From IMG/VR virus record IMGVR_UViG_2541047917_000003: a DNA stretch of 45,350 nt; one strand, given 5' to 3'. A model generated the notes under the pieces. It did no database searches, was not told the DNA's origin, and was given only the letters and a program-made list of their open reading frames with translations. This DNA is from a virus. Its lineage: Duplodnaviria; Heunggongvirae; Uroviricota; Caudoviricetes. The translations under genes were made by a program, and so were the position numbers. The number at the start of each line of letters is the position of its first letter. Position 1 is the first letter of the stretch. Positions 20,613 to 27,305 of the stretch are shown one piece after another.

Positions 20613-21134
20613 TCAGCACGCGATATCGAGAGTCAACTGCAGTTGCTCGCGCCAGTACTCAACATTTGCTTCAATAACCGGCTTATCCCATCGCCAGCGA
20701 GCCATCTCTCTTGCCCCATTGCTGGCTTTTGATTTCCGGTCATCGCGAATGCGACATGCTTGCTCATATTTCTGCTGCTCAGTCAGTTCACCGCGAAGCA
20801 GACTATCAATGTGCAGGTCGCACCACACAGCAAAACGAGCATCACACCAACGGGCAAATGCAACTGAAAGTTTTGGATGTAGCCACGTACCACCACCCCT
20901 GTCCTTTCGTGCCTTGCTGGTTTTTACATACCTCGATTGTGAGGGATGTAAAATTTGAGATTCTTTCCCGGTCAACGCTTCGTCTAAAGCACGAACGTAT
21001 TCAAGCGTTTCTGCCAAACGCATCCAGTTATCAATGCGTTTCCCAAATCTCTCAGCAACACCTGTGACGTTGATCCAACCATCAGTGTTGAAACTGACAA
21101 TTTCACCTTTGTAATTAAGTGGCACGATATTCAT
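20613..21134 (-). CDS. KilA-N domain protein
   Basis: 173-aa ORF; motif GGTWLHPKLSVAFARWCDARFAVWCD typical of the KilA-N DNA-binding domain; downstream of Rz. Confidence 0.7.
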   Translation of the reverse strand: MNIVPLNYKGEIVSFNTDGWINVTGVAERFGKRIDNWMRLAETLEYVRALDEALTGKESQILHPSQSRYVKTSKARKDRGGGTWLHPKLSVAFARWCDARFAVWCDLHIDSLLRGELTEQQKYEQACRIRDDRKSKASNGAREMARWRWDKPVIEANVEYWREQLQLTLDIAC

Positions 21135-21250
21135 AACGTTTACCTACCATTTGAAATGAACCTTTGCCGCACAGGAAACCAGCCCACCGAGGCTCGCCAG
21201 CACTAACTGGTATCCTCAAAGGCCCATTCCAAAGGGGCAGGTTCGGTGTA

Positions 21251-21307
21251 AAAAAAACATGCGTTGCGGTACGCATTTATTGCAAAAAAGCCCCGCATCG
21301 CGAGGCT
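21251..21307 (-). terminator. Two tandem intrinsic terminators downstream of Rz
   Basis: On the - strand: GCCTCGCGATGCGGGGC + TTTTTT (21284-21307) and ATGCGTACCGCAACGCAT + TTTTTTT (21251-21276). Confidence 0.6.
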
Positions 21308-21338
21308 CATTAAATGGACTTTGTGATTTGCAAAAAAA

Positions 21339-21797
21339 TTATTTCAGACATTGCGTCCTGATGTACTCCTGCAGGTAGTTAACCTGCGCGGTTATCCTGT
21401 CGATTCCACTTCGGAGACGGTAATAATTGAGTTCAGCATCTGCTGTAAGTCTTGGGCTTTCTCCATCGCCCATGCCGCTGGCTCCGGTCGTTGACTTTGC
21501 ACAGGTGGCGGCGACTTGCAGGCGCTTACGCCCAGCAGAAACATCAGCACGGAGACTTTCGATAGTCGCGTTAGCATCAGCAAGCTCCTTTGTGTATCTT
21601 GCGTCGAGTTCTGCTACATCACGTTGACGCTTCCGCATGTCAGCGATGGTGGCGTTCGCCTTCTCCAGTTCACTGGCCTTGTTATCGCGCTGCTCTTTGT
21701 AGGCGATTGCGTTATCACGGTAATGATTAACAGCCCATGACAGGCAGACGATGATGCAGATAACCAGAGCATAAATAATCGCGGCGACTCTGCTCAC
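21339..21797 (-). CDS. Rz: Spanin inner-membrane subunit Rz (i-spanin)
   Basis: ORF 21339..21812; likely GTG start overlapping the R stop (GTGA), giving (M)[30 protein letters not shown]..., close to lambda Rz N-terminus; TM helix plus coiled coil. Confidence 0.85.
21392..21583 (-). CDS. Rz1: Spanin outer-membrane lipoprotein Rz1 (o-spanin), embedded in Rz
   Basis: 63-aa ORF in the +1 frame inside Rz; signal peptide with lipobox (LLGVSAC) and Pro-rich segment. Confidence 0.75.
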
Positions 21798-22327
21798 TGA
21801 TCTATCCCCCAACAGGCTAATGCGCTTTCCTGGTCACGACGAATAACCTGTCCATAGCAGTTATTTGAACGTATGCGGCAATCGCGCCCACCATCTTTTA
21901 TCCACCAGCGAATCGCCTCGCATGCACCTTTACGATCACCGGCATTCAGCCGCTTATAAAACGTCGACGGGAAACACTTACCGGGGCCAATGTTATAGGG
22001 ACAAAATGACGCGATACCCGCTTTCTGTGGTTCGGTCAGTGGCACTTTAATATTGCGCTCCACCCATGCCAGCGCCTTATCCCGTTCAATGGCGTTAACC
22101 TGGTCGCATTTTTCCTTCGACAGTTTCATACCGGGAAAAACGGGTTTTCCATCCACCACCGTGGCACCCCGACAGATGGTCCAGATGCCGGAACCATCGC
22201 GGTATGCCGTTGTGTGGTTACCTTCTTTTTCATCCAGAAACTGGTCGAGAATATCAGGCGCAGGCGCACCGACGGCAATCAGTGCCAGAACGGCAGCCGA
22301 CAGGCCGTATCTGATTTTTGCGTTCAT
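21794..22327 (-). CDS. R: SAR endolysin (GH24 lysozyme with signal-anchor-release N-terminus)
   Basis: 177-aa ORF; N-terminal hydrophobic segment [16 protein letters not shown] then T4-lysozyme-like catalytic region (EG.HTTAYRD.SG.WTIC.G); resembles Qin/phage-21-type lysozymes, not lambda R. Confidence 0.9.
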
Positions 22328-22432
22328 GGATATTTATCAGGATTTATCGGTTTCTGAACCCTGGATATGTTTATCTGTCCCGGCCTGTTGAATCAGGCAA
22401 GGAATAGTTAAATACAATAGAGAGGATTGTTT

Positions 22433-22705
22433 ATGGACAATAGCACCATTTCTCTACAGGAGTTGCTCGACTGCATTTCCAGGCTTCGGGATGATGTAAA
22501 TGCCCTTACTGTCGCATTTTCATATCTGGCATTCTCAATTCCCAAGGAACAAATGCAACCAACACTGGCATCGCTCCAGCTTGAATCACTCAACCCCAAA
22601 TGGTCCCAGCAACAACAAAATTCTTTCAAGTGGCTGGCGGTATTACTGGAAGAAAAATATGCTGGTGAAATTACCATTTCGGCGGAGTCTTCAGAGAACC
22701 AGTAA
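22433..22705 (+). CDS. Hypothetical 90-aa protein on the opposite strand inside the lysis cassette
   Basis: ATG at 22433 preceded by AGAGGA; ORF track lists 22427..22705 from an upstream TTG. Convergent with and overlapping the 3' end of the 22671..23015 gene. No family recognised. Confidence 0.4.
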   Translation: MDNSTISLQELLDCISRLRDDVNALTVAFSYLAFSIPKEQMQPTLASLQLESLNPKWSQQQQNSFKWLAVLLEEKYAGEITISAESSENQ

Positions 22706-23015
22706 TTCTTCCCGGTAGCTTTCCTTTGTAGGTTATCCACACATTCTGCGCCTCTAAAATTATGGGGCGCTTTTCCGGCGACAGCTCATCCCCTTCACAT
22801 AACCCGGCAGCAACATCCAGGAAGACCTGTCTGATGCTCCTTCTGGCTGCTGCCTCATAAAACTCCAGCGCGGCACCTTCAACACGGTCCAGCGAGATGT
22901 CCAGGTCAAAAATTTCACCGTCAAAGCGTTTTTTGTCCCGTAACGCTAAAGTTACCGTAACTTTATTCTCAAAATTGCGGATCCCTTTCACAATCAGTTC
23001 ATAGTTTTGAGTCAT
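22671..23015 (-). CDS. Hypothetical protein between holin and endolysin (possibly YdfR/DUF1327-like)
   Basis: 114-aa ORF starting 5 nt after the holin stop; N-terminus MTQNYELIVKGIRNFENKVTVTLALRDKKRFDGEIFDLD. Family assignment is from memory. Confidence 0.5.
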   Translation of the reverse strand: MTQNYELIVKGIRNFENKVTVTLALRDKKRFDGEIFDLDISLDRVEGAALEFYEAAARRSIRQVFLDVAAGLCEGDELSPEKRPIILEAQNVWITYKGKLPGRITGSLKTPPKW

Positions 23016-23019
23016 TGAA

Positions 23020-23235
23020 TTACTCTCCCCGTGCAGCCTTACGCTTGTCTTCTTTAATCTTGAAATAAAGGTTTGTCAGGTACGTCAGCAGGCCAAATAC
23101 CAGGCTACCCAGCACTCCAATTGCCGCCCACTGTGAGGGCGTGACTTTATCTAGCAGCTGTAAAAACCAGTACCCGGCACTACCTGCTGAGGTGCCATAG
23201 GCGACACCCGTTGTTAACTTATCCATGGATTTCAT
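23020..23235 (-). CDS. S: Pinholin (phage-21 S-type) with dual start
   Basis: [26 protein letters not shown]...: two TM segments and charged C-terminus; MKxM dual start (antiholin/holin); SD gaggtgggg upstream. Confidence 0.85.
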
Positions 23236-23377
23236 AACCCCACCTCGCAGACAAAGCGGGTGTAAATTGAGGGAATACAACGTATCGCAAAAAAGCAGAA
23301 ACGTAACAGACTCGGAGTCAGTGAATAACTCAGGTATTGGGTTATCAGCTAATATCGAGACTCAAAAAATGGAAAAA

Positions 23378-23396
23378 CCCGCTCGACGGCGGGTTT
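23378..23396 (-). terminator. Intrinsic terminator-like hairpin upstream of the holin gene (candidate late-operon tR')
   Basis: CCCGC-TCGACG-GCGGG stem-loop with AAAAA on + (TTTTT on the - strand). Role as Q-modified terminator is inference. Confidence 0.4.
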
Positions 23397-23824
23397 AAGC
23401 TGTGTGACGAAGTAACCACTCTTAACAGCATAACCAATTTTTTACGTACGTAAACCACTAAATGATATTTGCGAGAATGCTACCGAGTATTGAAAACACC
23501 ACTACAAATACATAAGCAAATCTCAACAAATAACCAACAAATAATTTCCAGTGTTATTTTTAGCTGGTTTAAATTGAACCTTCAAATTATAGAGCACTTA
23601 TAAATAATAGCCGTTAATATAAATTGGCTAATAGATTTATTTTTATTCAGTCAAGAGCCATGAATAGGATTCGATAGAAAAAAGTTCAGATAAAAATAGA
23701 GATCTACTTCACAAATCAAACGAGAAACCAAAACTTACATCTTGAAATAATCACATTGATTAGATGAATATTTATCGCGCAGTGACATCATTTTTTAATA
23801 ATAGTTCAAAAAAAAGGGCTCACG

Positions 23825-24907
23825 ATGAAAAAATTAACAGTGGCAATTTCTGCTGTAGCTGCATCAGTACTGATGGCGATGTCTGCTCAGGCAGCTGAAA
23901 TTTATAATAAAGACAGTAACAAGCTGGATCTGTACGGGAAAGTTAATGCTAAGCACTACTTCTCCTCTAATGATGCAGATGATGGTGATACTACTTATGC
24001 CCGTCTTGGCTTCAAAGGTGAAACCCAAATCAACGATCAACTGACTGGTTTCGGTCAGTGGGAATATGAATTCAAAGGCAACCGCGCTGAATCTCAAGGT
24101 TCCTCCAAAGACAAAACCCGTCTTGCATTTGCAGGCCTGAAATTCGGTGACTACGGCTCAATCGATTACGGCCGTAACTACGGTGTAGCATACGACATCG
24201 GTGCGTGGACTGACGTTCTGCCAGAATTCGGTGGCGATACCTGGACCCAAACAGATGTGTTCATGACTGGTCGCACCACTGGTGTTGCAACCTATCGTAA
24301 CAACGACTTCTTTGGTCTGGTCGATGGCCTGAACTTTGCTGCTCAGTATCAGGGTAAAAATGACCGCACTGACGTAACTGAAGCCAATGGTGATGGTTTC
24401 GGTTTCTCCACTACTTATGAGTATGAAGGATTCGGCGTGGGTGCAACCTATGCTAAATCAGATCGCACTGACGGTCAGGTCGCCTATGGTAAGAGCAAAT
24501 TCAATGCCTCCGGCAAAAATGCGGAAGTATGGGCTGCAGGCCTGAAATATGATGCGAACAATATCTATCTGGCTACCACATATTCTGAAACTCAGAATAT
24601 GACCGTTTTTGGTAATAACCATATTGCAAACAAAGCACAAAACTTTGAAGCAGTAGCACAATATCAGTTTGACTTCGGTCTGCGACCATCTGTTGCTTAC
24701 CTTCAGTCAAAAGGTAAAGACCTTGGTGTTCATGGTGACCGAGACTTAGTCAAGTATGTCGATGTCGGTGCTACTTACTACTTTAATAAAAACATGTCCA
24801 CTTTTGTTGATTACAAAATCAACTTAATTGACGATAGTAAGTTTACCAAAACAGCTGGTATTGATACCGACGACATCGTCGCTGTAGGTCTGGTGTATCA
24901 GTTCTAA
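23825..24907 (+). CDS. Outer-membrane general porin, OmpC/OmpF family (phage-encoded Lc/NmpC-like)
   Basis: 360-aa ORF with signal peptide [30 protein letters not shown]...GKVN start and C-terminal ...VAVGLVYQF; sits between Q and S on the opposite strand as nmpC does in DLP12. Confidence 0.9.
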
Positions 24908-25040
24908 TCTGATTACGAAAAAGATATGTTGCGGGAGGCTTTGCCTCCCCAACATATAAGTGGCTCCCTCAAGCCACTTCCTTTAGGAGCACAACCTTGC
25001 TTCTAACTATATAAACCTTCTGTTATATATTACCCTTTAT

Positions 25041-25070
25041 TTTTGGGGGCGTTGCAACGCCCCATTTTTA
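25041..25070. terminator. Bidirectional intrinsic terminator between the porin and Q genes
   Basis: TTTT-GGGGGCGTTGCAACGCCCC-ATTTTT: perfect GC-rich stem flanked by T-runs on both strands, between two convergent genes. Confidence 0.8.
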
Positions 25071-25096
25071 ATAACTTTTAGTAAACAACTGGCATA

Positions 25097-25480
25097 TTAA
25101 TTAGAGTTATTAACAACGATATCCATCTCTAACCGGATATCTAATGCCATTAACATCCCTTCAATTATACCCTCAGCCTTCTGTAACCTTTTCCCGATAT
25201 AACCATCAGAGCAGCAATGCTTACCTGCCAGTGACATGAATGTCATACCGACTACATAATAATCTACTAATAAATCGTGCAAATCGCTGTTGTTCTTTTT
25301 CAGACGGGCCATGCACCCGCAAATGATCATCGCGTCATCGTCACAACATTGCGGGCGAGATTTTACTTTTGAAGGAATTAATCCCTTAAAACCGGCGGCA
25401 ATGGACGACCAGGTCACATCTTCATGATTATTAGCCGCCCACGCTCCCCAACGTTCAAGAACCATCTGAATATCACGCAT
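25097..25480 (-). CDS. Q: Late-gene antiterminator Q (phage 21 / DLP12 QuuD type)
   Basis: ORF 25097..25495; likely start [24 protein letters not shown]...; recalled near-identity to DLP12 QuuD; unrelated to lambda Q. Confidence 0.85.
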
Positions 25481-25565
25481 CAACTTACTCCACAAAAATC
25501 AGACCAGAACGCCAATTACAAGCAAAAATCAACAAAACAGTATTAGTTGATTGTTATCTCTGACT

Positions 25566-25688
25566 TCATACTCCTGCTCCTGTCAGGGTTTTGGCGTAAT
25601 TCTTCAGTATTCGGTAATCGGTCAAAACAGAACTGGGGAAACGATATAAGCGCAGGCGCATCCAGCGGTGGCGAAGAAGTTCTGCCAT
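25566..25688 (-). CDS. Small protein YlcG-like (40 aa)
   Basis: Short ORF between rusA and Q (MAELLRHRWMRLRLYRFPSSVLTDYRILKNYAKTLTGAGV) resembling DLP12 YlcG; below the ORF-track length cutoff; coordinates from manual translation. Confidence 0.45.
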   Translation of the reverse strand: MAELLRHRWMRLRLYRFPSSVLTDYRILKNYAKTLTGAGV

Positions 25689-25702
25689 ATTAAACTCAAA
25701 CA

Positions 25703-26065
25703 TCATTCATTCCCCATTTCGGTGATGGTCAGTTCCAGCCTCCCACCTTTGGTAACAGGCATCTTCACAACGCGGTAATCAACGACCTGAGCATCATCCA
25801 GCCAGAAACCTGCTTTAGTGAGTGCGTCAAAAGCGGCTTTTTGCAGATTATCCAGGTCACGGCGACGGCGATCCGGCATGTGGCACTCAATGCGGATTTT
25901 CACAGGGATAGCCAGGCCGATATCCAGCATTGCGTTTTTAATGATTCTGGCGACGTTATCGCGGTATGCCTGCCCCTCTGCGCTGACGTGCGTGCGCCCG
26001 CGATTATGGCGGTAATAGCGATTATTGCTCGGAGGCCAGGGTAATGTGATGCTGTAGGTATTCAC
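25703..26065 (-). CDS. rusA: Holliday-junction resolvase RusA
   Basis: 120-aa [39 protein letters not shown]..., recalled near-identity to DLP12 RusA. Confidence 0.95.
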
Positions 26066-26268
26066 GCCTTAATAATCCCCTCTTTCAGCCACATAACCTG
26101 TGTTTTCGAGCGCGCATTCTTTTGCATATGCAGCATCGACTTGCTTGGCATGCCCTTTACCGGCAATCTTCTGTATGCGCTAAACCTAGATAGAATCCAC
26201 TCTGTGCTCATTGAAGCCCGCTCTATGCTTCCTTTCTGGTATTGAAGGGATTGAGATGGGCTAAGCAT
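26062..26268 (-). pseudogene. Decayed remnant of a ybcO-like (DUF1364) gene
   Basis: 68-aa ORF whose C-terminus (...[13 protein letters not shown]) matches the recalled YbcO C-terminus, while an adjacent frame encodes ...VDAAYAKECALE; the N-terminal zinc-ribbon part is absent. Confidence 0.4.
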
Positions 26269-26608
26269 TATTGGCCTCCTGCATCAGGAGAAAGACAATC
26301 ATGGCGGCGCGGAGAGGTCTGGTATCAAATATTGGGCTTACGCCTTTTGCATCCACACACCATTCAGTTAACTGGTCTAAGATAGAAATCCTGTATTTCT
26401 CAATAATCGGCCATGAAGCGCTCGGATCATTGCAGTAGTCAGGCAAATGATTTAATGGCTCAAAAGTTGTATCAGCATTTCCGTAATACCATTTGTTGGT
26501 GTTATTCCCTGATGTTTCCGGTTTACTTGCCCAAAGGCCTTTAAAAATTATGTCTCCTACCATTCTGTTAATTTCAAAATCACTTAACTGTGAATAATCC
26601 ATTGTCAT
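26261..26608 (-). CDS. nin-region hypothetical protein
   Basis: ORF 26261..26644; likely start [28 protein letters not shown] with ATGA overlap on the ninE stop. Family not assigned. Confidence 0.5.
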
Positions 26609-26781
26609 TTCCTCGCACGATATCTTAGCCACCGGATATCCCACAGGTGAGCTGTGTAATTGAAGGTTTTTACGTCAGATTCTTTTGGGATTGGCTTGCG
26701 TTTATTTCTGGAGCGTTTCGTTGGAAGGTATTTGCAGTTTTCGCAGATGATGTCGGTGAAACTTCGTCGCTGTCGCCTCAT
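26605..26781 (-). CDS. ninE: NinE
   Basis: 58-aa product [58 protein letters not shown]; ATGA overlap with the MTase stop; matches recalled NinE. Confidence 0.7.
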
Positions 26782-27305
26782 GCCGCCCTCCTGACGCCCT
26801 GCCCGATCGCCATCAATGCCGCTTTGGATACGGTAGTAAACATCCGTCGAGGACTGATGAACGGTCGCCAAATCAGCAGCATGGAGCCTTTGCTGTTTCC
26901 CTTCTTCTCCAACCCTGTCGATGGTTCGATAAAATTAATCCGTCCATCAGTGATAATGCGAACTTCGTCGACACTCTCCAGAGCCTTGCTGAACCATCCG
27001 ACTGACATATCCTCTGGCACAAGCATAACTACCGTCTGTCGCTGTTGTATGCACTGCTCAGCGGCTTTTTCCACCCACGGCCTGATATTGCTGTACGGTG
27101 GGTTATTCCAGATTGCACCGTGGCTTACCCACTCAGAATTGAGCGCGTCGTCGGCCTCAGTTAGCCAGTGAGCACACAGAGCATTTTTGTCGCTCGCTGC
27201 CGAATCCAGCCAGAATCCAAACTCAATATCCAGTGCATCAAAAAGCCAAAGCGGCGTTTGCCAGCAGTCCTTGTCGTGTGCTGGCGTATTTGATTTGATT
27301 GTCAT
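26778..27305 (-). CDS. Phage DNA N6-adenine methyltransferase (Dam-like, NPPY motif)
   Basis: ORF 26778..27365; likely start [26 protein letters not shown] (ATGA overlap with ninB stop); catalytic NNPPYS motif. Confidence 0.8.

Follow-up and report, generated by a model that had tools for sequence, protein, structure and literature searches.

A known porin–IpeX cassette lying in reverse between gene Q and its probable late promoter in a lambda-like E. coli phage

The segment described here is the long-known Lc/NmpC porin and IpeX lysogenic-conversion cassette of lambda-like E. coli prophages. It probably lies reversed between the late antiterminator gene Q and Q's own target promoter, pR′; for this explanation as a whole, i.e., a cassette insert with pR′ in the spacer beyond it, we estimate a probability of about 0.8. 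The late promoter and the first terminator map downstream of the cassette, an arrangement that would insulate the cassette from Q-dependent late transcription rather than couple the two. The cassette itself is already known and ordinary. It is textbook lysogenic conversion, in which the host major porins are replaced by a prophage porin and an sRNA that silences host porins. The host major porins are phage receptors and entry routes for antibiotics. Nearly half of complete E. coli genomes carry the cassette, as at least 80% of the segment is found in 2465 of 5426. All positions refer to the window, the whole 45,350-nt stretch of phage DNA that was analysed.

The cassette, IpeX and the hairpins next to Q

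The layout of the cassette and its flanking genes is as follows.

23020–23235, minus strand: S21-type pinholin gene, S (open reading frame list and PF04971)
23456–23824, plus strand: AT-rich upstream regulatory region of the porin gene (composition)
23696–23716, plus strand: CRP-like site AGAGATCTACTTCACA, 8/10 to consensus, equivalent to the second CRP site of the PA-2 GenBank record
23825–24907, plus strand: complete OmpC-family porin gene (open reading frame list and PF00267)
23825–23893, plus strand: porin signal peptide, the first 23 codons aligning with the peptide annotated for PA-2 lc
24908–25074, plus strand: porin 3′ UTR of 167 nt, equivalent to IpeX (four hairpins and a terminator; 3′ end set by the literature length)
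25046–25069, plus strand: predicted unidirectional intrinsic terminator of the porin/IpeX transcript (terminator scan, folds of both strands)
24918–24957, minus strand: candidate intrinsic terminator of transcripts from the Q strand (complementary to IpeX hairpin 1, with CUUUUU after it)
25097–25480, minus strand: gene Q (open reading frame list and PF06530)

By the open reading frames and Pfam matches, the porin gene occupies the interval from Q to the holin gene, on the strand opposite to both; it is convergent with Q and divergent from the S21-type pinholin gene. The order Q, inverted porin, spacer, S21-type holin is also that of DLP12, PA-2 and phage 434B, and 35 phage records have the same gene order. 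The 360-residue product matches the entire PF00267 profile (E = 1.9e-151) and is 92% identical to Lc and 93% identical to the NmpC fragment. Among solved structures, OmpC and OmpK36/37 come closest (E about 1e-137). An earlier, sequence-only reading of this DNA had recognized a complete porin gene with a signal peptide opposite Q and the lysis genes, and had likened the arrangement to DLP12 nmpC and PA-2 lc; the profile match, the alignment with PA-2, the gene order and the porin identity bear out both points. The complete phage late region of the window and the existence of near-identical free phages show that this is no domesticated remnant.

The G+C content of 23456–23824 is 29%, compared with 51% for the whole window, in keeping with the AT-rich spacer described before. 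The promoter scan of the porin upstream region finds a lone weak σ70-like match at 23581–23608. Going by what is published on DLP12 and PA-2, whose sequences are near-identical, we infer that the porin is transcribed from its own promoter somewhere in 23456–23824. The porin gene had been credited with a leader of 540 nt; this length is not upheld, as the S-proximal 220 bp belong to the late transcription unit. Expression of prophage nmpC genes, at both the RNA and protein levels and inversely to ompC, is documented for strain CFT073 (PMC12890032).

Judged by its near-identity to the known locus, the structured 3′ UTR of the porin gene is the sRNA IpeX, which the sequence-only reading had passed over. 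The 189-nt porin–Q intergenic region matches the DLP12 ipeX locus and PA-2 at 183 of 189 positions (96.8%), an identity that covers every IpeX hairpin and the terminator. The region is strongly structured, with a minimum free energy of −62.4 kcal/mol (z = −7.88). Among its variants, 21 of 21 are at least 92.7% identical, and several of the differences lie in hairpin loops or are compatible with the structure, e.g., a G·U pair changed to A–U. IpeX is 167 nt long, originates at the porin promoter and is processed out of the porin transcript (PMC12197685); its properties are also described in PMC5069750. A permissive Rfam scan of 21000–27000 gave nothing relevant, and Rfam has no IpeX family.

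Two hairpins in the intergenic region concern the ends of the converging transcripts. The hairpin GGGGCGT-TGCA-ACGCCCC at 25046–25063 has a 7-bp GC stem and a 4-nt loop and is followed by AUUUUU; a U-rich stretch at 25036–25044 precedes the stem, so that the plus strand is T-rich on both sides. In a bidirectional terminator, a GC-rich hairpin is preceded by an A-tract and followed by a T-tract, such that both transcripts end in a U-tract. Here, the T-run upstream on the plus strand becomes an A-run downstream on the minus strand, and thus the Q-strand RNA has no U-tract: it reads ...GGGGCGUUGCAACGCCCCCAAAAAUAAAGG across the site and carries the A-run CAAAAAUAAA 3′ of the stem. The terminator scan reports the site on the plus strand only. 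Thus, of the perfect bidirectional terminator that Q and the porin gene had been said to share, the hairpin and its flanking T-runs are real, but the bidirectionality is not; as predicted from both strands, the terminator is one-way and ends the porin/IpeX transcript. For transcripts of the Q strand, the candidate is 24918–24957. The minus-strand RNA of this segment folds at −22.7 kcal/mol (z = −5.35) and continues into CUUUUUCG, a U-run that is just 4 nt long in some relatives. If this terminator is used, the 3′ end of the Q mRNA would be antisense to most of IpeX. The number of terminator-like sites in the region, four, does not exceed chance (3.0 ± 1.7 in shuffled sequences). The weight given to the hairpins at 25046–25063 and 23375–23396 rests on homology and conservation rather than on the pattern match.

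A candidate late promoter in the spacer

Q is a 127-residue late antiterminator of the QuuD/933W branch of PF06530 (E = 8.5e-54). It matches the solved 21Q structure (E = 7.6e-8), with recognizable similarity spanning only about 80 residues. PF06530 is the Q21 family and Q82 belongs to PF06323 (PMC9388147); an assignment of PF06530 to the phage 82 Q was rejected on the basis of that source. The predicted elements of the late transcription unit, read 5′ to 3′ on the minus strand, are as follows.

23427–23454, minus strand: late promoter pR′ (homology to Stx-phage pR′)
23397–23421, minus strand: late transcript start, near A23420 or G23421, and conserved leader AGAGTGGTTACTTCGTCACACAGCTT
23418–23410, minus strand: candidate σ-dependent pause element TGGTTACTT in the conserved leader
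23362–23396, minus strand: candidate tR′ hairpin AAACCCGC-CGUCGA-GCGGGUUU, followed by UUCCAUUUUUU (terminator scan, fold)
23020–23361, minus strand: rest of the late leader (23361–23236) and the S21-type pinholin gene (PF04971, E = 2e-35)

The segment 23454–23362 (minus strand) is homologous to the Stx-phage pR′ region from about −36 to about +47. An 83-nt alignment to the pR′ of VT2-Sakai, with a score of 69, is found only in the spacer. The palindrome TTTACGTACGTAAA at 23454–23441 overlaps the −35 sequence TTTACG and is followed by an A-run and then by the −10 sequence TATGCT at 23432–23427; it is a candidate Q-binding element. The complete promoter pattern of palindrome, −10 and leader occurs once in the window, in the spacer, against a chance expectation of 0. 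With 8 of 12 positions matching the σ70 consensus, the promoter was missed by the consensus scan and found by homology only.

The start site was placed by alignment to VT2-Sakai, where dRNA-seq puts the pR′ start 258 nt before the 3′ end of tR′ (PMC7547250). Because PMC7547250 numbers the Sakai sequence by a different record version, offset from the current coordinates, the Sakai start was set from the 258-nt length together with the cleavage site at +173; it thereby falls at TAAGAG, about 21 nt past the Q stop codon. We infer the start site, pausing, Q binding and termination in the window from such sequence comparison. The pR′ leader is nearly invariant across Q clusters. Within it, TGGTTACTT/TACTTC at +3 to +12 is invariant in the class and is a poor match to TATAAT in any register; neither form of the pause candidate, TGGTTACTT or TACTTC, offers the usual A−11/T−7 pair in any single register.

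Conservation of the −10 bears on which σ factor serves the promoter. In relatives, T−12 is found in 60 of 66, A−11 in 66 of 66 and T−7 in 65 of 66, while the middle positions vary; the −10 positions were outside the search pattern. This conserved TAnnnT, together with homology to a mapped σ70 pR′, argues for σ70 and against a scheme in which a host σE promoter (essDp) in the spacer is the main driver of the lysis genes, as is reportedly the case for the DLP12 lysis promoter, the module being a domesticated envelope-stress function. Control of the DLP12 SRRz operon by a Q-type antiterminator, RpoE and Hha is cited in PMC7918800 (refs 27–29). A weak σE-like TGAGTTA-N15-TCTGT can be picked out by eye at 23332–23306 (minus strand), downstream of the hairpin. 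The complete phage late region and the near-identical free phages also speak against domestication, and we judge the σE scheme very unlikely here.

In lambda and in 933W-type phages, pR′ directly follows or overlaps the end of Q. By this precedent, the late promoter would lie immediately downstream of Q, and Q-modified polymerase, which is established to read through terminators, would pass 25046–25063, run antisense across the porin gene and the spacer and continue past 23375–23396 to S, so that transcriptional interference would couple porin expression with late expression. A loose TTGCAA-19-TAATAT is visible by eye on the minus strand in 25055–25025. However, the promoter scan finds nothing on the minus strand between Q and the porin gene, and this gap is without homology to any Q21-family pR′ (best score against VT2-Sakai pR′ just 14, versus 69 in the spacer). 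The cognate palindrome, −10 and leader stand in the spacer, and the type of palindrome tracks the Q cluster across inserts of varied content (see below). We give a promoter adjacent to Q next to no credence.

The candidate pR′ is thus in the spacer, pointing away from the porin gene. The sequence-only reading had left two courses for late transcription, across the porin gene or from a late promoter and tR′ within the 23281–23824 spacer. The homology to Stx-phage pR′ and the single occurrence of the pattern sustain the second course, and the first falls away. Since pR′ starts near 23420 and is directed away from the porin gene, Q-dependent late transcription would never cross that gene, and the claim that antisense transcription couples porin and late-gene expression in either case fails. 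The sole transcripts antisense to IpeX and the porin gene would be early, N-antiterminated ones reading through beyond Q.

Relatives indicate how Q and a distant pR′ may be matched. In 98 of 121 loci with the leader motif, a Q of PF06530 type is recognizable upstream in the same orientation; most other loci are cut too short on the upstream side to tell. The palindrome type at −33 to −24 matches the Q protein cluster in 98 of 98 loci, whether Q ends 25–66 nt or 0.6–2.8 kb upstream and whatever the content of the insert; palindromes of other classes include GCGGTCCGC and GCGTACGC. This match fits a binding element, one of a different kind from the 21Q direct repeats. In the window, 1.68 kb separate the end of Q from the start site downstream, and pR′ is not directly adjacent to Q; many relatives show the same separation with other inserts. 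Judging from these loci, adjacency of Q and pR′ is typical of the Q21 family but is not universal. In Lambda_2E9, a promoter-like stretch and a terminator right after Q were considered as a canonical pR′–tR′ and rejected, the Q-type palindrome and promoter lying 1.9 kb further on, past two cargo genes. Q and pR′ are tightly linked, and co-inheritance rather than function could explain part of the palindrome–Q match.

Two tentative extensions follow from the palindrome and the leader. The 933W/QuuD branch of the Q21 family may recognize a palindrome and A-run over the pR′ −35 rather than 21Q-type direct repeats. The pR′ leader RNA of 50 nt, nearly invariant and produced constitutively by these prophages, may itself be a trans-acting sRNA, as StxS is for the longer Stx-phage leader. 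We regard this pair of ideas as conceivable but on the whole unlikely. If palindrome recognition is true, then a cis element, not gene adjacency, would define the Q–pR′ partnership, and the Q–pR′ junction could then serve generally as a hotspot at which inverted cargo is inserted (porin, KAP NTPase, DUF6731, lipocalin and others). Annotators and engineers of these prophages should find pR′ by the palindrome and leader sequence and not by proximity to Q.

Candidate tR′ and proposed working of the locus

The candidate tR′ hairpin at 23396–23375 (minus strand) corresponds to +25 to +46, with UUUUUCCAUUUUUU after it and the pinholin ATG 140 nt downstream. It folds at −12 kcal/mol (z = −2.9), and its stem is nearly invariant while its loop varies in 45 relatives. 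The first late gene, S, begins at about +186 and has the dual starts MKSM, at 23235 and 23226, a dual-start annotation that phage 434B also has. A hairpin and T-run about 140 nt before the pinholin start had been noted earlier and proposed as a distal tR′; the hairpin is confirmed, and with the pR′ homology, the U-tract and the conserved stem it keeps its standing as a candidate.

As a tR′, the hairpin may be less than fully efficient here. A pR′ RNA of 258 nt has been detected in the Sakai Stx phages (PMC7547250), and therefore at least some polymerases read through the homologous +25 to +46 hairpin without Q. That RNA extends 200 nt beyond the hairpin to a terminator at +258; in the Lahn1 record, the annotated tR′ is likewise further downstream than this hairpin, and positions +1 to +46 of the leader are far more conserved than a generic terminator would require. 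One may thus suppose that the spacer promoter is real but that 23375–23396 belongs to a conserved leader that serves Q loading, or marks where a stable leader RNA with its own function ends, rather than acting as a functional tR′, with lysis silenced by a weak promoter, by translational control of S or by Rho. Yet the hairpin and U-tract have the form of an intrinsic terminator, and the terminator scan finds this as the only terminator-like site between pR′ and S, which follows only 140 nt on; a conserved stem with a variable loop is expected of a hairpin that must form. We consider a hairpin without terminator function improbable.

With the hairpin taken as tR′, the locus is proposed to work as follows. 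In the lysogen, the porin transcript would start at its own promoter in the AT-rich region and end at the one-way terminator at 25046–25069, as the DLP12 and PA-2 literature suggests. Its 167-nt 3′ UTR would act as IpeX, lowering OmpC and OmpF, and the major porins would thereby be swapped for the phage porin. The late unit would begin beyond the cassette, at a σ70 promoter near 23420 directed toward lower coordinates. As long as Q is absent, transcription would end at the hairpin and U-tract, from +25 to about +57, yielding a short leader RNA and keeping the pinholin (+186), endolysin and spanin genes silent. Upon induction, early transcripts would supply Q, whose binding site would be the palindrome, 1.7 kb downstream of gene Q. 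While RNA polymerase pauses in the conserved leader, Q would join it, and the modified enzyme would then pass tR′ and transcribe the lysis and morphogenesis genes.

Comparison with known systems

The closest systems are DLP12 and PA-2. The spacer is 97% identical to that of PA-2, including both CRP sites annotated there. In K-12, the nmpC gene of DLP12 is split by IS5, whereas the porin gene is intact here. DLP12 and 434B lack the DUF1327 gene and the small plus-strand open reading frame present here between S and R, and the S leader is about 16 nt longer here than in DLP12.

The Q–pR′ logic of lambda is the same. A constitutive late promoter gives a short terminated leader RNA in the lysogen, the 6S RNA, and Q-dependent read-through leads into S, R and Rz. 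Lambda Q is of an unrelated family (PF03589), and the lambda pR′ directly follows Q without cargo.

With phage 21, the Q family PF06530 is common to both. In phage 21, the promoter holds a Q-binding element, polymerase makes a σ-dependent pause in the leader, and a terminator lies downstream (PMC6606751); the general scheme is the same here, with candidate elements. The site bound by 21Q comprises a pair of direct TGAGCA repeats near −21 and −13 (PMC6606751), whereas the element that varies with Q type here is a palindrome around −33 to −24 followed by an A-run. The geometry of Q binding may therefore differ from that of 21Q.

The Stx phages 933W and VT2-Sakai, the source of StxS, have a Q of the same family and branch, with 75–79% amino acid identity. 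Their pR′ shares the −35/palindrome (TTTACGATCGTAAA there, TTTACGTACGTAAA here), the −10 position, the TAAGAGTGGTTAC leader and the first hairpin. The −10 is weaker here, TATGCT as against TATCAT, and the leader reads TACTTCGTC here and TACATTGCC in the Stx phages. There, the promoter overlaps the 3′ end of Q, which ends at about −25, and the cargo, tRNAs and stx, lies downstream of the tR′ at +258 in the late orientation. Here, by contrast, 1.65 kb of inverted cargo intervenes upstream of the promoter, outside the late transcript, and S follows at +186 with only the first hairpin between.

The porin cassette and the ipeX locus

The late genes of the window lie on the - strand, and an inverted porin gene sits between Q, which encodes the late antiterminator, and the lysis genes, as follows.

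Genes around the porin cassette
25097-25480, - strand: gene Q (Pfam PF06530, E=8.5e-54)
23825-24907, + strand: porin gene, 360 aa (PF00267, full profile, E=1.9e-151)
23020-23235, - strand: S21-type pinholin gene S, dual start MKSM (PF04971)

A DUF1327 ORF, a SAR-type lysozyme gene and the Rz/Rz1 genes follow downstream on the late strand. Between the pinholin and SAR endolysin genes lie the DUF1327 ORF (22671-23015, -) and a 92-aa ORF without a Pfam match (22427-22705, +), whereas in DLP12 and phage 434B R directly follows S. The ORFs of 22427-23015 look like a second small cargo insertion within the lysis cassette.

This is the Lc/NmpC cassette, which is very common and was described long ago. 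In all, 35 phage records, including PA-2 (lc) and 434B, carry the same 2.7 kb at 92-97% identity. Among 5426 complete E. coli genomes, 2465 carry 80% or more of its 1.9-kb core and 3363 have some part of it. The porin is 92% identical to Lc, the PA-2 porin, and 93% to the NmpC fragment of DLP12; its nearest solved structures are OmpC and OmpK36/37. Annotated records of 434B and PA-2 show the same gene order, as does DLP12 of K-12 (quuD, nmpC, essD, with nmpC split by IS5), bearing out the likeness to DLP12 nmpC and PA-2 lc claimed in the sequence-only reading.

The 189 nt between the porin and Q stop codons are identical at 183 positions to the DLP12 stretch and to the PA-2 stretch; by its sequence, this segment is the ipeX locus, which the earlier reading did not mention. 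IpeX is a 167-nt RNA whose synthesis starts at the phage porin promoter; it forms part of the porin transcript, is processed out of it, and lowers OmpC and OmpF (PMC12197685; PMC5069750; PMC7177473). In CFT073 at 37 °C, expression of the prophage nmpC genes is strong, and ompC shows the opposite behavior (PMC12890032). The 24908-25074 segment folds into four hairpins plus a terminator (-62.4 kcal/mol, z=-7.88). Among 21 distinct IpeX variants from related loci, several changes fall in hairpin loops or are compatible with the structure, e.g., G.U to A-U in hairpin 3. Rfam release 15, searched at permissive thresholds, gave no match for 24908-25074, and IpeX, although a known sRNA, appears to be without an Rfam family.

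The terminator scan lists four such sites in the region against 3.0 +/- 1.7 expected by chance; as the count is not above chance, their meaning must come from homology. Two of them matter here.

Terminator-like sites
25046-25063, + strand only: hairpin between the porin and Q genes
23396-23375, - strand: hairpin in the spacer (23281-23824) between S and the porin gene

On the + strand, the 25046-25063 hairpin is preceded by TTTATTTTT and followed by ATTTTT, so that the porin/IpeX transcript ends in a U-tract. Hfq-binding sRNAs usually have a 3' module made of a U-rich stretch, a hairpin and a U-tail, and the terminator with its flanks fits such a module for IpeX. The layout and hairpins first described largely stand, but the proposal that this terminator is bidirectional does not, as Q-strand RNA has CAAAAAUAAA past the stem and the scan reports the + strand only. 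The complement of IpeX hairpin 1 on the Q strand (24957-24924; -22.7 kcal/mol, z=-5.35) leads into CUUUUU, with a U-run that is only 4 long in some relatives. This makes 24918-24957 (-) a candidate intrinsic terminator of transcripts from the Q strand. Its use would make the 3' end of Q mRNA antisense to most of IpeX, with full complementarity over ~150 nt.

The probable late promoter pR' and its leader

The S-proximal part of the spacer matches sequences beside Stx-phage Q genes (distant BLAST matches: Lahn1, phiP27 and SfIV). By alignment, window 23454-23362 (-) is homologous, from ~-36 to ~+47, to VT2-Sakai sequence overlapping and extending past the Q end. For these phages of strain Sakai, dRNA-seq together with Term-seq maps the start of pR', the late promoter, 258 nt upstream of the 3' end at the terminator tR', and RNase E cuts the pR' RNA at +173, in GU/AUU (PMC7547250). 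Both measures (258 nt, +173) put the Sakai start at TAAG(A)G, ~21 nt past the Q stop. The window positions are transferred from Sakai by alignment.

Elements of the predicted window pR' (all - strand)
23454-23441, -34 to -21: palindrome TTTACGTACGTAAA, overlapping the -35 TTTACG
23432-23427, -12 to -7: -10 element TATGCT
A23420 (or G23421), +1: transcription start
23420-23397, +1 to +24: leader AGAGTGGTTACTTCGTCACACAGCTT
23396-23375, +25 to +46: hairpin
to ~23362, to ~+59: U-tract
23235, +186: pinholin ATG

The local alignment score to Sakai pR' is 69 in the spacer versus 14 in the Q-porin intergenic region. The 45-kb window has a single occurrence of the composite promoter pattern, where chance predicts 0. 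Against the sigma-70 consensus the promoter reaches only 8/12, and the promoter scan did not flag it; its candidate pause element is a poor -10 match in every register. The alignment places pR' and tR' of the window in the spacer, the alternative that the earlier reading had allowed for.

Among relatives, the stem of the candidate tR' is nearly invariant and the loop variable, with no countable covariation, a pattern that fits a need for the hairpin to form. In Sakai, where the 258-nt pR' RNA is seen, at least some transcription passes the homologous first hairpin. The ~50-nt leader (AGAGUGGUUAC...GCGGGUUUU; 23362-23420, -) is almost invariant across Q clusters that have only 40-50% protein identity to one another, and its conservation seems to exceed the need of a generic pause site plus terminator.

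The PA-2 record of 1986 annotates two CRP sites, which fall at window 23696-23716 and 23400-23420. The former (8/10 to consensus) is plausible for the porin promoter. The other (J02580 1067-1087; TGTGAcgaagtAACCA, 7/10) is exactly +1 to +21 of the pR' leader; as this stretch is conserved in phages without a porin, its annotation as a CRP site is probably coincidental. Past the tR' hairpin lies TGAGTTA-N15-TCTGT (23306-23332, -), weakly sigma-E-like by eye. Q, RpoE and Hha are cited as regulators of the DLP12 lysis operon (PMC7918800), and the motif may relate to the reported RpoE control.

Because pR' points away from the porin gene, Q-modified late transcription would miss it. Half of the sequence-only interpretation thus stands, the placing of pR' and tR' within the spacer; the other half, a coupling of porin to late expression through antisense late transcription, does not follow. 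Of its "540-bp leader", ~370 bp hold as an AT-rich porin control region (G+C 29% in 23456-23824 versus 51% for the window), and ~220 bp belong to the late unit. Among Q-strand transcripts, only early ones running past Q could cross IpeX and the porin gene. Lambdoid N-type antitermination lets transcripts ignore terminators, and early transcripts so modified would pass those beyond Q.

Q types, palindromes and cargo

A leader-motif scan of viral contigs yielded 120 loci. In 98 of them, counting the window, a PF06530-type Q can be recognised upstream on the same strand; the others are mostly contigs too short upstream to tell. The Q stop precedes the start site by ~25 nt (933W type), by 46-66 nt (other types) or, where DNA intervenes, by 0.6-2.8 kb. 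In the porin class, Q ends at ~-1680, the inverted porin spans -404 to -1483, and S starts at +185 or +169. Q proteins clustered at 70% identity form seven clusters, each with its own palindrome at -33 to -24 in 98/98 loci, at every Q-pR' distance from adjacent to 2.8 kb.

Palindromes by Q cluster
Cluster 0 (window, 933W and 2E9-like Qs), 50 loci: TTTAC[GA][TA][AT]CGTAAA
Cluster 1, 22 loci: GCGGTCCGC and single-base variants
Cluster 2, 16 loci: GCGTACGC
Cluster 3, 5 loci: TGTTATAACA
Cluster 4, 2 loci: GGAATTCC
Cluster 5, 2 loci: ATTCGTTACGAAT
Cluster 6, 1 locus: GCGCACGC

The hexamer at -12 to -7 lay outside the search pattern. In 66 distinct sequences, T-12 is found in 60, A-11 in all 66 and T-7 in 65, while the middle positions vary, a conservation pattern that, judged by sequence, marks a functional sigma-70 -10 element. 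Linkage of Q to pR' could contribute to the Q-palindrome match, which persists across differing inserts and differing downstream sequences. For the 933W/QuuD branch of the Q21 family, the palindrome overlapping the -35 element (23441-23454, -) is a candidate for the site that Q binds.

Comparison of the loci marks the Q-pR' junction as a hotspot into which cargo, mostly inverted, has been inserted. Besides the inverted porin, the gap holds (loci L013-L127), mostly inverted, a KAP P-loop NTPase, DUF6731, an NA37-like protein and an alpha/beta hydrolase; several gap ORFs have no Pfam match. In Lambda_2E9 (locus L130, 400-2310), the gap contains an inverted lipocalin Blc gene and a YbgA-like gene, after which comes a palindrome-bearing promoter with a different leader. 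The Q-specific palindromes, the hotspot and the invariant leader RNA may interest workers on Q proteins.

PF06530 has been named the Q21 family (PMC9388147), and placement of the window Q in the phage 82 family was rejected on that ground. The window Q is a Q21-family member and has a match to the solved 21Q structure (E=7.6e-8). The binding sites of 21Q are a pair of direct TGAGCA repeats near -21 and -13 (PMC6606751), whereas the element varying with Q type among the present loci is a palindrome that lies farther upstream; Q proteins of the window branch may bind DNA in another mode than 21Q.
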